A DNA stretch of 63,200 nt, the filler included, from Reclinomonas americana ATCC 50394 (Eukaryota), in the NCBI GenBank assembly GCA_048213135.1. It is 13 parts of 13 records of this genome, joined end to end, with 100 filler letters (N's around TTAATTAATTAA, not from the genome) between each part and the next. Parts side by side here need not be neighbours in the genome. Positions count along the whole stretch, not along the records: positions 20,124 to 24,194 come from AFZH01022378.1; positions 24,295 to 29,346 come from AFZH01022379.1; 11 more parts are not named here. The stretch is one strand, 5' to 3'. The notes below the pieces were generated by a model that was not told the DNA's origin, ran no database searches, and was given only the letters and a program-made list of their open reading frames with translations. The translations under genes and the position numbers were made by a program. Of this stretch, positions 21,320-26,154 are shown piece by piece. Position 1 is the first letter of the stretch. Each line of letters opens with the position of its first letter.

Positions 21320-24300
21320 TCACTTGCCACTTGCTCTTGAGCGCAGAGCGTCGGCAGCGTCGGCCGGCAACTGCGAGACCAGCGCCTCAAAGTCGCTGGC
21401 GTACGCGTTGGCCATGTACTGCACGGCGGCCACAATCTGCGCCACCGTGTCGGGCGGCGCGCGGCCTTCACCCGCCAGCACGAACCCAAACGCGCGCACC
21501 ACATCCGCCGTGCACTCGAGCACGTCGCGGTCCGCCTGCGAGAGGCCGAGCAGCACAAAGCCGTACACACATTCGGCCTCCTCAAAGTCCTCCAGCAGCG
21601 GGAGGGAGGCCATGAGGGCGCGGACCAGCGCCGGGCGCGCCTCGCTCATCGCGTCGGCCGGGCAGTACAGCAAGATGCGTGCCACCACCGCGCACGCATT
21701 GTCGGCCACCAGCGGCTCCATCGCCGACCGATCCAAGTACGCTCCAATAGACTCGAGCAGCGGGCCGACCAGATGCCTGCACGAGACGCGTTAGTCGCTG
21801 CGTGGAAACAGTGGGGGTGGCACGGGGCGACCACGCAACTGCATCGCAGCTGCGTTGCAGTGCTCGACCAGCAACCCCGACAAGTAGATGGCGTTGCGGG
21901 CCAGTGGCATGGGATCCGACTCGCGCCGTGCAGCAATTGCGGCAATGATGCCCTCGGCCAGCGTCTGTGACAGACGAGGACACTCGTCAGTGACAAGGGA
22001 CATGGGATGAAAGTCGGTGGGGGACAAGAACTCACCGGCACATACGGCTGCATACCGTCCTTGACCACCTCGACAATCTCACACAGGCAACCGAGACCGG
22101 TTACGCGCCTTTGTGGCGGCATGCGCGGGTGCTGTGCGAGAGGCACCGACGGTGAGCACTTTTCTTCTCTCCTCCCACCCAACCAAGTGCACGCAACAAT
22201 GTACTTGATCAGCACGTGAGTGACAGTCGGCAGCAGCGCCACAAAGGTGCCCTGCAGCGAACGGCAGTACTCGGCCAGCACTTCGGCCGCCGAGTCGATC
22301 ACCAGCTGCCGGTGGGGAAAAAAAGAAGGGTCAGCATGCGAGAAAACACAATGCTTTTGAAGGCGCACACAACACACCATATTGTCGTCGGCATCCTCGT
22401 CGTCCTGGGTCAGTCGATGGCGTTGACACCTGGCTTTCTCCGACAGCAACGTCATGAGCGCCTCGCCAATCATCACCGTTCCGTTGCAGTTGTGATGCTC
22501 TGTTGATGCACGGTGAGGACGCGTGGAGGAAACACAAAGAAGATCAAACACGACCCGCACCTCCCAGCATCATTTCTCGAATCTCCTCCGCTGCGTACAC
22601 CGTGGTCACTGGCGCAGTGGGTGTGGTCTCTTGGAAGGGTGGATAGTTGAGAGTGCCGCGACACAGTTCGAGAATGCACTGACATGCGTTGCCGACGACG
22701 TGCGGATGCTTGTCCTCCAACATGAGCTGCAGACGAGAGGTCAGAACACAGAAAACAAGTCTCACCACCGCCTTCCCCCCTTTACGAGCTCACCGTAACC
22801 AATGTCTGCCGAAGTGCGTGTGCCACCGACAAGATCTGCTCTCGCGGTGTGCCCTCGGGGAAGGGAGAGCACAAGAACATGCGCGTCAGCGCAATGATCG
22901 AGTGCCGCCGCACATTCCAGTGGAAGAAGTTGGTCAACTTGGCCGCCTCGCCAAACAGAATGTCGCTGTAGGGCGTCAGTACGCCAGTATTGCCGCAGTA
23001 GGTCGCCAGCTTGCTGACGGCAAACATGGCCGAGGTTTTTTCCGCCATGATGGGTTCCTCGGCACTGTCACAATACATCAGCACATCCCTTTCCCTCACC
23101 CGCCACTGGGTGTCTGAGCGACGCAACTCTGCTTCGTTGCCTGCTGGATCATCCTTGTCACCGGACCACGGTTGCACATCGTCATCCTCATCATCCTCCT
23201 CCTCCTCATCATCGTCGCCGACACTCAACACCACACCTTCAGCGTCGTCCTCGTCACGATCGGGATTGGAGATGCCCACGTCCTGCAGGCGGAAGGTCAT
23301 GAATTCAGCAACGACAGAAGAGCGTGATGCAAAGCGAGGCCCACGCAACAGCCTGCAACGCCTCAATCATGGCATCGATGATCAGCGGCACGTGCTCGGC
23401 CACGGCACCAGGAATGGTTTCGGAGCAGGCACCAAAGAACGAGTAGGTGTACTCGTTGAGTTCGTTCTCTTCCAGATCGAGTCCCTCCACCGCCTGCATG
23501 AGAGAGCCAGTGAGCAGTCCTCATCATGTCACCACCAACAGAGTGTGTGACCTACAACACTGACCTGCGGTGCGAGAATGGCATACGCGGGGGCAAAAAT
23601 CTCGCCACCCACAGCATTGCAAATGTGGCTGGCAAGCTCCAGCGCCGTCGATCGCAACTTGATGTACGCCTCCTCGGTGATGTCCAAACACTGATTGACA
23701 AAGTGCATCATCCGGTCGTAGTACGGCAATATCAACTGGAAAAGAACGCGCTCATTCAGCTTCCAAAATAAAGAACTCTGTCTGCACATTGACTTCCCCA
23801 CAAACCTCCTTGCCTCCCAACACCACACTGGCCAGTGCCGACGTGGCCGACACTCGAGTTGCATACGAGGTCTCCGCACTCTCGATAATGGCCAGCAGCC
23901 GACTCAACAGCGGATCCACAAAGTCCCGCATCTGCTCCGCCTCCAGGTACTCGCAGAACTTGTCGAGCACGCGGCACGAGCTGCCCTGCACCTCTGGGCT
24001 GGCGTCGTCCAGCGCAATCAGCACGGCATGCAACACAGTCGCGTGGTGCTCCAGAATCGACTGCAGTTTGTCTGCGTCGCACGTGGTGAGTGAGAGAGAG
24101 GGGGAAGGGGAAGACGGAAGGGGAAGACGGAAGGGGAAGACGAAGGGGGGAAGACGAATGGGGGAAGACGAATGGGGGAAGACGAAGGGGGAAGNNNNNN
24201 NNNNNNNNNNNNNNNNNNNNNNNNNNNNNNNNNNNNNNTTAATTAATTAANNNNNNNNNNNNNNNNNNNNNNNNNNNNNNNNNNNNNNNNNNNNGAGTCT

Positions 24301-26154
24301 CCACATCGTCGCATCACTGCCATCTCCCCGCAATGGCCACCACAAACCTCGGGCAGAATCTGCCCAATGTCCTCCTCCATCTGCACGTTGCAGCCTTCGA
24401 CAATGGATTCGACCGCAAAGAGACCACCGCGCACAATGACGGGATCCTCCGAGTGCATCATCTCCGACGCGAAGCTCATCACCGGGCCGTACACAAACTT
24501 GCTCGGCAAGTGCAATGCGAAGCAGTCGAGGATGTCGCCACCAATCTACATGCAAGGAAGGTGAGTTCATCGGCAGCCGTGCATACAACGTTGTTTCTGC
24601 TATCACGCAACTCGGTACGCCGGCAACTCATCAATGTCCTCGCCCTCCCAGTGCTCCGGCTCAGCCTCGGCCAGCACCGTGGAGGTCACTTGGTACACCA
24701 GGTCCAACAGCTCACGGTTGTTGGTGAATGCCTTGGGTTTGCTGGGGAGAACAAAGAGAAGAAGACGGAGAAGGTGAGTGGACACACCACAAGAGACGGG
24801 GGCGAGAGGGTGTGCGCGGTGCGAGGTACGCAACAATCGCACAATCCACGCAATGACATTGCCGGCCTGCTCACGAGTCTGCAACTCAAAGTTGCGGCTG
24901 GTGCACACCTCGGCCATGCACTGGCACAGCAGGGGCAAGTGCTGATTCAACACATCGGCCGCCTGCAAAAACACAAACGCTCTCAGAAACAATCACAGCG
25001 GTGGTTGGTTGCTCAGGCTCGCATGCGCACCTTCTCGATAATGTCAAAGAAGATCTCGAACGACTTGACGGCGATCTCCTCGTCGCCCTTTTGTAGAAAC
25101 TCGCTGACCATGTTCAACACCGGCTCCACCAGGTCGTGCAAGTGTGCCTGCGATGGTTGCACAACACAGCGTCAAGACCGACTTCCTGTCATCCTCTCCC
25201 CATCGCTCACACTCACGCACCAGCTCATCGGGCTCCTCCAGCAGCGGCACGAGATGCACCAGTGACTTGAGCGCACATCTCCGCACATCCGAGCTCTCCG
25301 GATCGCACAGGCCGGCCGCATAGATAGCAAACAGCGTCTTGAGGTGCTGCCGCAACGTCGTGCTAATCGTCTCCGTCAGCGAATCCAGCACCAACAGCGC
25401 AATCTCCCGATGACTGGCACTCGCACTCTGCGCACACTCGGCCAGGAACTGGAGGAGACCATCCCAGGTGCCGCTCGGCACCGTGAAGCGCGCAATCATG
25501 CTGACCACGTTGGAAATCGCCTTGCGTACCAAATGACTGCAAATGAAATAAGACATCTGGAGAAGCCGGCTGGAGGTAGATGAGCTGCAACGCAACACTG
25601 GCTCATGAACCACCAAATGCAACAGTGTCTCCTGCACATGCGCGTGCTCGGCCGGTGACAGCAAAATCCACAATTTGGAGATCTTCATGCGCAGAACGAC
25701 CGCAGCCAGCTGGCGAGTCTGCACGAGATATGCATGTACATGATGTCAGCAAGTGATTACCGCAGCGAGTGGACCACCGGAGCAAGTGCGAGGGCGCAAG
25801 TGCTCCACAAGTGCACATTCACATGCACAAACAACAACACACACTCGTTTTGTGTGAAGCTCAAGCATCGTTCAACGGAATGACGATATGGCGTATGCAG
25901 TGGAGTGTGTGTGACAGACAGTGCAACTGACTTGTGGAGAGACAGAGACAAAGAGTCAGAAAAGCTCTTGTAAGTTTCACCTTCCAATCTGTGTCTGCAT
26001 GTCGCGCCACGTGATCAAGCAGTGCCGGCACCGAGTCAGCGCGCTTGAGGAAGGCGGAGAGGTAGGCGCGTGCGACGGCCACCACCGAGTCATCGGGTTG
26101 AAGAAAGTGAGTCAGCGCAGACTCGAGCGAGTCAAACGCGGAAAGAGGGTCCAT
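21320..26154 (-). CDS. IPO4: Importin-4/Kap123-like karyopherin (HEAT repeats), about 17 exons, spans the gap at 24195
   Basis: LQPD.., RQLAAVVLRMKI, VRKAISNVVSMIA..W..LL.FL, ALHLPSKFV, IVEGC, ELNEYTYSFF, acidic loop, EKTSAMFAV, YF/FHWNVR, LPLLEDFEE. Confidence 0.88.

Follow-up and report, generated by a model that had tools for sequence, protein, structure and literature searches.

At certain atypical human donor sites, U1 small nuclear RNA (snRNA) reportedly pairs through its 5' end in a shifted (+1) register, as Roca and Krainer are said to have described in 2009, and further registers, with a bulge at +2/+3 or with an asymmetric loop, were reportedly added by Roca and colleagues in 2012. 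Work by Burge and Karlin in 1997 (maximal dependence decomposition) and by Carmel and colleagues in 2004 is said to have found that a G at the last exon base (-1) and a G at intron position +5 depend on each other. Here, we analysed the donors of introns predicted in one 63-kb stretch of DNA from Reclinomonas americana ATCC 50394 (hereafter the window, meaning the whole stretch), including those of an importin-beta family gene. Donors with G at +5 (unshifted, U) mostly follow an exon-final G, whereas donors with G at +6 and none at +5 (shifted, S), often GTTGCGT, follow A, C or T with two exceptions; donors with neither are referred to as other (O).

The work of Tan et al. (2016, PMC4856993) reports the experimental demonstration of the shifted register for human sites and puts all validated non-canonical U1 registers together at about 1.5% of human donors. 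An example given there is ACA/GUCAAGUAUA, with A at position -1 and intron +1 supplied by the G of 'CAG' (a slash marks the exon-intron boundary throughout). The S donors of the window resemble this geometry, as their +1 G would lie opposite U1 C9 and the last exon base opposite U10, with A preferred, and as a G-U at +6/+7 is conserved. Human shifted donors are, going by the same text, rarer than about 1.5%, whereas S donors make up 38/129 (29%) of all predicted donors and 26/78 (33%) of those in a strict subset. S donors also differ from human shifted donors in converging on a single tight consensus, GUUGCGU, with a G-C-G core that is a poor partner for standard U1. The bulge +2/+3 and asymmetric-loop registers likewise have an extra nucleotide between GU and the equivalent of the +5 G, but they keep the last exon base on C9, where a G is useful, whereas here G is avoided at -1 and only the donor at 17503 is bulge-like. 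As in the classical -1/+5 dependence, exon-side and intron-side positions covary; under that rule, however, a donor without -1 G needs +5 G more, whereas here such donors are without +5 G too and carry a G one base further inward. A second tight donor motif beside a degenerate major one also recalls U12-type introns, from which S introns differ in sharing branch site, branch distance, acceptor and length with the other introns. A full-text literature search, which left most subscription journals uncovered, returned neither a GTTGCGT/GUUGCGU donor motif nor a lineage with frequent shifted donors.

Donor class and the last exon base

Among the 129 predicted introns, 70 donors are U (55 after G, 15 after another base), 38 are S (2 after G, 36 after another base) and 21 are O, and the exon-final base is strongly associated with the class (Fisher test, odds ratio 66, p=2.7e-14). 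A first-pass annotation of the same DNA had proposed this association after counting about 33 S and about 76 U donors, with about 31 of the 33 after A, C or T; its counts are close to ours, its two exceptions (17503 and 61621) are the same, and the association holds for the predicted introns of the window. It is likewise found among the 101 introns of at most 130 nucleotides (nt; U, 49 after G and 9 after non-G; S, 1 and 28; Fisher p=6e-14) and in the strict subset of 78 introns, which combine this length limit with good signals (U, 39 and 5; S, 1 and 25; Fisher p=5e-13). After two corrections to the importin gene model, the full table reads 56 and 15 for U versus 2 and 36 for S. In the refined importin gene, all eight exons ending in a base other than G are followed by S donors (seven GTTGCGT and one GTCGCGG) and none of the ten G-ending exons is (nine donors have +5 G and one is GTGAAA), which amounts to a Fisher p of 2.3e-5 over 18 introns. 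The first-pass annotation was right in counting ten G ends in this gene; where it had listed six non-G ends, all with GTTGCGT, there are seven of these and the GTCGCGG variant.

The same tendency is visible in a count that uses no gene model. On both strands together, GTTGCGT occurs 26 times, compared to 10.8 expected, and G precedes it in 1/26 cases, compared to 21% of all GT dinucleotides (p=0.018). Twenty of the 26 occurrences are predicted donors, which make up 20 of the 38 S donors, and the remaining six likewise follow a base other than G. We regard it as confirmed that donor class goes with the exon end: the association is real and far beyond chance in the window.

The introns were called with our own dynamic-programming gene finder, built from a 3-periodic coding model, acceptor and branch-site matrices, a length prior and strand masks anchored on Pfam matches, which gave the 129 introns in its final run. 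Its two-component donor model covers intron positions +1 to +8 alone; exon bases on the donor side stay unscored, so that no coupling of donor type to the base at -1 can arise from the gene finder itself. Gene finding with a flat donor model was dropped as too noisy (GTTGCGT was already the top donor 7-mer in its first pass, with 8 cases), self-training without the masks was discarded as the intron count ran up to 318, and calling introns from signals alone was insufficiently selective (182 real versus 23 shuffled at a score of 16).

Wrong gene models or chance might still lie behind the pattern, as might a single mobile family of S introns with its own donor and insertion preference. The introns were predicted without transcripts, at least three of the 129 proved wrong on checking (26010, 22551 and, from an earlier run, 22913), and long predicted introns are doubtful. 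However, wrong calls weaken associations and do not make them, the association is stronger in the strict subset, and both the blindness of the predictor to the -1 base and the rank of GTTGCGT under the flat donor model speak against an artefact. So does the reading frame, which would be broken on retention by 17/26 S introns of the strict subset (31/44 for U introns). Pfam profiles run on across predicted junctions in the genes for kinesin (68 to 70 and 156 to 160), aldo/keto reductase (111 to 112), protein kinase (100 to 105 and 139 to 141), the ATPase (72 to 75) and the dehydrogenase (41 to 46). Sequence homology gives independent support to the seven predicted GTTGCGT junctions of importin, which show no indel of three or more residues against 24 homologues, and to the predicted PHF5 junction at 21044: here, the Pfam profile stops at base 21043 (profile positions 19-81) and restarts in the next frame at about 21103-21177 (80-104). 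A mobile or introner-like family was rejected after an all-versus-all blastn-short comparison of intron interiors (introns above 400 nt and those containing N were left out), as these share only low-complexity, pyrimidine-rich matches of 13-25 bases, one of them between two S introns (14 bases). We consider an origin of the association in artefact, chance or a mobile family extremely unlikely.

Two donor classes one base apart

Once the two classes are offset by one base, their positions agree one for one. U donors (n=70) have A23 C23 G7 T17 at -2 and G in 55 cases at -1, followed by G in 51 at +3, C27 A24 T15 G4 at +4 and T in 47 at +6. S donors (n=38) have A9 C7 G15 T7 at -2 and A16 C9 G2 T11 at -1, followed by T in 35 at +3, G in 31 at +4, C in 33 at +5 and T in 28 at +7. 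The -1 position of S donors is indistinguishable from -2 of U donors (chi2 p=0.54) and their -2 position is like -3 of U donors (p=0.62), whereas the unshifted comparisons differ, both at -1 (p=1e-11) and at -2 (p=0.004). This is what a shifted register leads one to expect: the last exon base behaves like the canonical -2 and the +1 G like the canonical -1 G, the T at +3 would face U1 A7, and T prevails at +7, with the G at +6 given by the definition of the class. The first-pass annotation had aligned G/GTGCGT with /GTTGCGT, putting the +1 G in the place of the exon -1 G, and this shifted alignment of the classes is well supported by composition.

Compared with coding sequence (33% G), G is depleted both at -1 of S donors (p=5e-5) and at -2 of U donors (p=8e-6). 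Among the 18 S introns in phase 0, nine follow a codon with A as its third base, compared to 8.8% of the codons of the window (p=7e-6), and 14 follow one with A or T there, compared to 24% (p=2e-6). The exon end at S donors is under selection, with A favoured and G avoided, and the A-rich ends fit a pairing of -1 A with U1 U10. The idea that shifted donors free the coding sequence from a -1 G requirement is not supported in that form: exon ends need not carry G, yet they remain constrained.

Beyond the donor, the two classes look alike. In introns of at most 130 nt (58 U and 29 S), the median length is 67.5 nt for U and 66 nt for S, the branch-to-acceptor distance is 20.5 and 19 nt, a CTCAC-type branch is present in 41/58 and 20/29 and a CAG acceptor in 51/58 and 25/29; pyrimidine content likewise does not differ. 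Predicted introns in general have a median length of about 66 nt, a pyrimidine-rich tail and a branch site (CTCAC or CTGAC) that precedes a CAG acceptor by about 20 nt. CTCAC (third-position C in about 70%), seen for instance in the minus-strand intron 22132-22197, comes before CTGAC in frequency, and 86-88% of acceptors are CAG; as a majority branch form, CTCAC is unusual next to the fungal CTAAC/CTGAC. A U12-type identity of the S introns was rejected, as their donor is not RTATCCTT, they have no TCCTTAAC branch, and their CTCAC/CTGAC lies about 19 nt from the CAG as in U introns.

A single-register proposal and its rivals

We propose, with a probability of roughly 55%, that both classes are forms of one motif, H-G-(G or U)-U-G-C-G-U, which is read in a single U1 register and cut before the first GU. 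The 5' arm of U1 snRNA would act as the reader of both donor classes and bind them in one register, with the first G of the motif opposite C9 and the preceding base opposite U10, and the splice cut would be placed ahead of the first GU. With G as the variable base, the first G would remain exonic, giving an ordinary donor, G/GUGCGU; with U, the first G would become intron +1, giving a shifted donor, H/GUUGCGU, and U1 would sit one base off the cut. Given such a cut rule, it would follow automatically that exon end and donor class go together. At the later steps, which involve U6, U5 and Prp8, the GU would presumably be chosen irrespective of the register of U1.

Several points weigh against this proposal. 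The introns are all predicted and stem from a single 63-kb window, and the T found at -1 in 11/38 S donors would not pair with U10. Further points come from nearest-neighbour duplex energies, calculated with the standard U1 5' end (AUACUUACCUG). U donors reach -7.15 kcal/mol after G and -2.85 kcal/mol after non-G; for the 36 S donors that follow non-G, the values are -0.02 kcal/mol in the canonical register, -0.73 in the shifted and -0.46 in the bulged one. The shifted duplex is very weak, though ahead of the canonical one, and the same sites pair better, at -1.65 kcal/mol, when the extra T is deleted in silico. In addition, standard U1, with its pseudouridine 5, should favour A at +5 of S donors, whereas 33/38 have C there and 3/38 have A; C at the matching position of U donors amounts to 27/70 (p=9e-7). 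In line with this, GTTGAGT is unenriched (7 observed versus 10.3 expected), in contrast to GTTGCGT. The proposal leaves the near-invariance of GCG in S donors and their weak binding to standard U1 unexplained. The first-pass annotation had seen in the shift a compensation for the missing -1 G within the U1 duplex and had allowed that this view would fall if the shifted register brought no gain at non-G sites. With standard U1, S donors pair less well in the shifted register than they would if the extra T were absent, and the energies tell against compensation on those very terms, unless the organism's U1 is non-standard.

The extra base might instead be bulged out. In such a register, the last exon base would pair with C9, +1 with C8 and +2 with A7, the U at +3 would be bulged and GCGU would pair normally. 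Bulge +2/+3 registers are validated at human sites, according to PMC4856993, and the exceptional donor at 17503 (AAG/GTTGAGT) pairs best when its +3 U is bulged, at -6.9 kcal/mol with standard U1. A bulged register predicts a favourable G at -1, however, and only 2/38 S donors have one, significantly fewer than coding sequence would give; a bulged base should also vary freely, whereas +3 is T in 35/38, and the mean bulged energy of S donors is the -0.46 kcal/mol given above. As -1 G is not retained and +3 is not free, we rejected this register, which we consider very improbable as the general mode of S donors.

Alternatively, GUUGCGU could be recognised mainly by a protein or at the U6/U5 stage, in which case the exon-end rule would reflect the preference of that factor. 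A free duplex search of GTTGCGT against standard U1 gave a mean of -1.9 kcal/mol, so that the motif is nearly without predicted pairing in any register, and it is tight, as judged by its exact recurrence among S donors and by the share of its occurrences that are predicted donors. On the other hand, the sequence yields no candidate factor, the exon-side pattern of S donors, with A favoured and G avoided before the first G, equals the ordinary U10-type pattern of U1 at -2 of U donors, and the ACAGAGA box of U6 has no complement to GCG. Recognition by another factor therefore appears rather improbable to us.

A non-standard U1 might also read these donors, either with one arm that carries G-C for both pseudouridines (ACGCACC instead of ACUUACC) or with a second variant, ACGCAAC, dedicated to GUUGCGU. 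This would account for the near-invariant G at +4 (31/38) and C at +5 of S donors, and A is rare at +3 of U donors (4/70). In our models, the ACGCACC arm would give -9.2 kcal/mol for U donors after G, -6.2 for U donors after non-G and -6.0 for S donors in the shifted register, and the ACGCAAC arm, whose sequence complements GUUGCGU, would reach -9.7 kcal/mol for shifted S donors, compared to -0.7 with standard U1. However, A at +4 of U donors (24/70) is easier to reconcile with standard U1 than with a G5 variant, the 5' end of U1 is, to our knowledge, almost invariant across eukaryotes, and GTGCGT is also frequent in GC-rich algae that have standard U1. No U1 gene was found in the window at the Rfam gathering score or at E<=1, so that the window has no direct bearing on a variant U1; the only matches at E<=1 were U4 and false, microsatellite-driven matches to microRNA families. 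Simple-sequence repeats at 34719-34809, 50526-50671 and 59623-59707 give such false, sub-threshold matches on both strands. We hold a non-standard U1 to be possible, though unlikely. It is equally conceivable, though unlikely, that the major spliceosome works in two parallel modes, with a standard-type U1 arm for ordinary donors and a changed U1 for GUUGCGU, a scheme that would cover the second ACGCAAC variant as well as a single arm with G-C for the pseudouridines. If this were true, U1 would routinely bind one base away from the cut at about a third of all introns.

The geometry in our single-register proposal is known from the human shifted register, and it is its frequency that is unusual here; the GCG requirement and the weak duplex with standard U1 form the core puzzle, and the U1 of this organism is thereby the obvious point of interest. 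Should the pattern extend to the whole genome, the organism would offer a natural system with the shifted U1 register as a main donor mode, used at about one intron in three and under a near-absolute sequence rule. How the cut site gets fixed independently of the position of U1 would then become directly testable, and the proposal would entail a checkable prediction on this organism's U1.

The importin gene and other features of the window

The importin gene (Table 1) was checked against 24 full-length homologues, obtained by searching 1.8 billion representative proteins, among which the closest match reaches 50% identity over one exon and 30% overall. A search with its exons for an annotated importin of this organism gave no match, and the relatives in metagenomes comprise two loci with 20% identity, a distance that precludes a comparison of orthologous introns. 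The homologues revealed three errors in the first model: 8-9 residues were absent at intron 1, about 29 residues were missing where the assembly has a gap (24195-24294), and an insertion of 29 residues, shared by none of the 24 homologues, pointed to an intron missed by the gene finder. Two of the three were mended. With introns 22662-22591 and 22560-22500 in place, the score of a hidden Markov model (HMM) built from the homologues improved from 686.5 to 702.5 bits, and moving intron 1 from the first prediction (26010) to its present place, the best of eight in-frame alternatives, brought it to 716.5 bits. Rival splice solutions at 22.6 kb lie within 1 bit of each other and are not separable by HMM score; we chose the one listed because both of its acceptors are CAG. 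In practice, gene finders trained on a single donor matrix would misplace or miss about 30% of the donors in this genome; in our own, the GTCGCGG variant went unnoticed before the comparison with homologues.

Table 1. Predicted genes, introns and RNA in the window, with positions along the whole stretch
Feature	Position	Strand	Details
Importin-beta family gene (IPO4/IPO5-like)	21320..26154	-	ATG 26154, stop 21320; Pfam TPR_IPO5 and IBN_N; 18 introns after refinement
Importin intron 1	25719..25980	-	AAG/GTGAAACT, 262 nt; after G; neither +5 G nor +6 G
Importin intron 2	25537..25596	-	S, AGT/GTTGCGT, 60 nt; clean against homologues
Importin intron 3	25148..25220	-	U, CTG/GTGCGTG, 73 nt
Importin intron 4	24963..25030	-	U, AAG/GTGCGCA, 68 nt
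Importin intron 5	24742..24834	-	S, ATT/GTTGCGT, 93 nt
Importin intron 6	24546..24611	-	S, CGA/GTTGCGT, 66 nt
Importin intron 7 (predicted)	24061..24347	-	U, GAG/GTTTGTG; spans N linker; extent provisional
Importin intron 8	23736..23805	-	U, GAG/GTTTGTG, 70 nt
Importin intron 9	23494..23564	-	U, CAG/GTCAGTG, 71 nt
Importin intron 10	23283..23349	-	S, GCT/GTTGCGT, 67 nt
Importin intron 11	23065..23127	-	S, AGA/GTTGCGT, 63 nt
Importin intron 12	22727..22793	-	U, ACG/GTGAGCT, 67 nt
Importin intron 13	22591..22662	-	S variant, TGT/GTCGCGG, 72 nt; +16 bits together with intron 14
Importin intron 14	22500..22560	-	U, GAG/GTGCGGG, 61 nt; supersedes first prediction 22551
Importin intron 15	22306..22377	-	U, ATG/GTGTGTT, 72 nt
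Importin intron 16	22132..22197	-	S, ATT/GTTGCGT, 66 nt
Importin intron 17	21965..22035	-	U, CCG/GTGAGTT, 71 nt
Importin intron 18	21777..21839	-	S, GCA/GTTGCGT, branch ACTAAC, 63 nt
PHF5 intron (neighbour of importin)	21044..21108	+	S, GAT/GTTGCGT, 65 nt; Pfam
S donor after G (exception)	61553..61621	-	CTG/GTTGCGT, 69 nt
S donor after G (exception)	17209..17503	-	AAG/GTTGAGT; spans N linker
Protein kinase	~5.6-8.6 kb	-	Pfam scan, open frames and predicted exons
Kinesin with coiled coil	10.7-15.2 kb	+	Pfam
TFIIS zinc ribbon and alpha/beta hydrolase	15.4-18.1 kb	-	Pfam
Aldo/keto reductase	18.1-19.1 kb	-	Pfam
PHF5	20.8-21.2 kb	+	Pfam
WD40 protein	30.6-33.1 kb	+	Pfam
U4 spliceosomal snRNA	33894-34026	+	Rfam RF00015, 54.3 bits, full length
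NPR2		+	Pfam
3-hydroxyacyl-CoA dehydrogenase		+	Pfam
Histidine-kinase-type ATPase gene	53.3-56.3 kb	+	Pfam
GST and PRMT5		-	Pfam

The window consists of contigs of 3-9 kb chained by 12 linkers of the form N44-TTAATTAATTAA-N44, and its GC content is about 57%. Sequence is lost at some linkers: the NPR2 gene is without Pfam profile positions 134-227 around 36101-36200, and other linker sites include 24195-24294 and 17243-17342. U4 is the only Rfam match of the window at the gathering score. On the minus strand at 15393-18054, the gene finder fused a TFIIS-type zinc ribbon (16993-17208) with an alpha/beta hydrolase (16176-16502), and this model probably represents two genes. The multi-exon gene at 53300-56300 (plus strand) matches HATPase_c over two exons; the exons that follow resemble a response-regulator receiver domain by eye, with no Pfam match given for them. 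At 60137-62918 (minus strand), a 708-residue protein rich in Thr, Ser and Ala is predicted, with nine short introns and four S donors including the exception 61621. No Pfam family matched the open frames of this region, and its product may be a lineage-specific surface protein.

Two long introns carry continuous Pfam coordinates, 37892-38302 on the plus strand (411 nt, 3HCDH_N 41 to 46) and 6146-6611 on the minus strand (466 nt, Pkinase 139 to 141), and long introns thus exist beside the majority of 60-90 nt. Between 39600 and 50300, about 10 kb are strongly purine-skewed on the plus strand, where GC skew reaches 0.38 and AT skew 0.49; this stretch has long open frames without Pfam matches and nearly no confident gene predictions. 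At 33249-33320 (plus strand), the gene finder placed a doubtful 226-nt intron, starting five bases later, instead of a likely real S-donor intron of about 72 nt (AGA/GTTGCGT ... CTGCAG). Lastly, an exon at 9766-9972 on the minus strand encodes EGF-like repeats (teneurin-type EGF, E=1e-13) and adjoins the S-donor intron 10175-10098.

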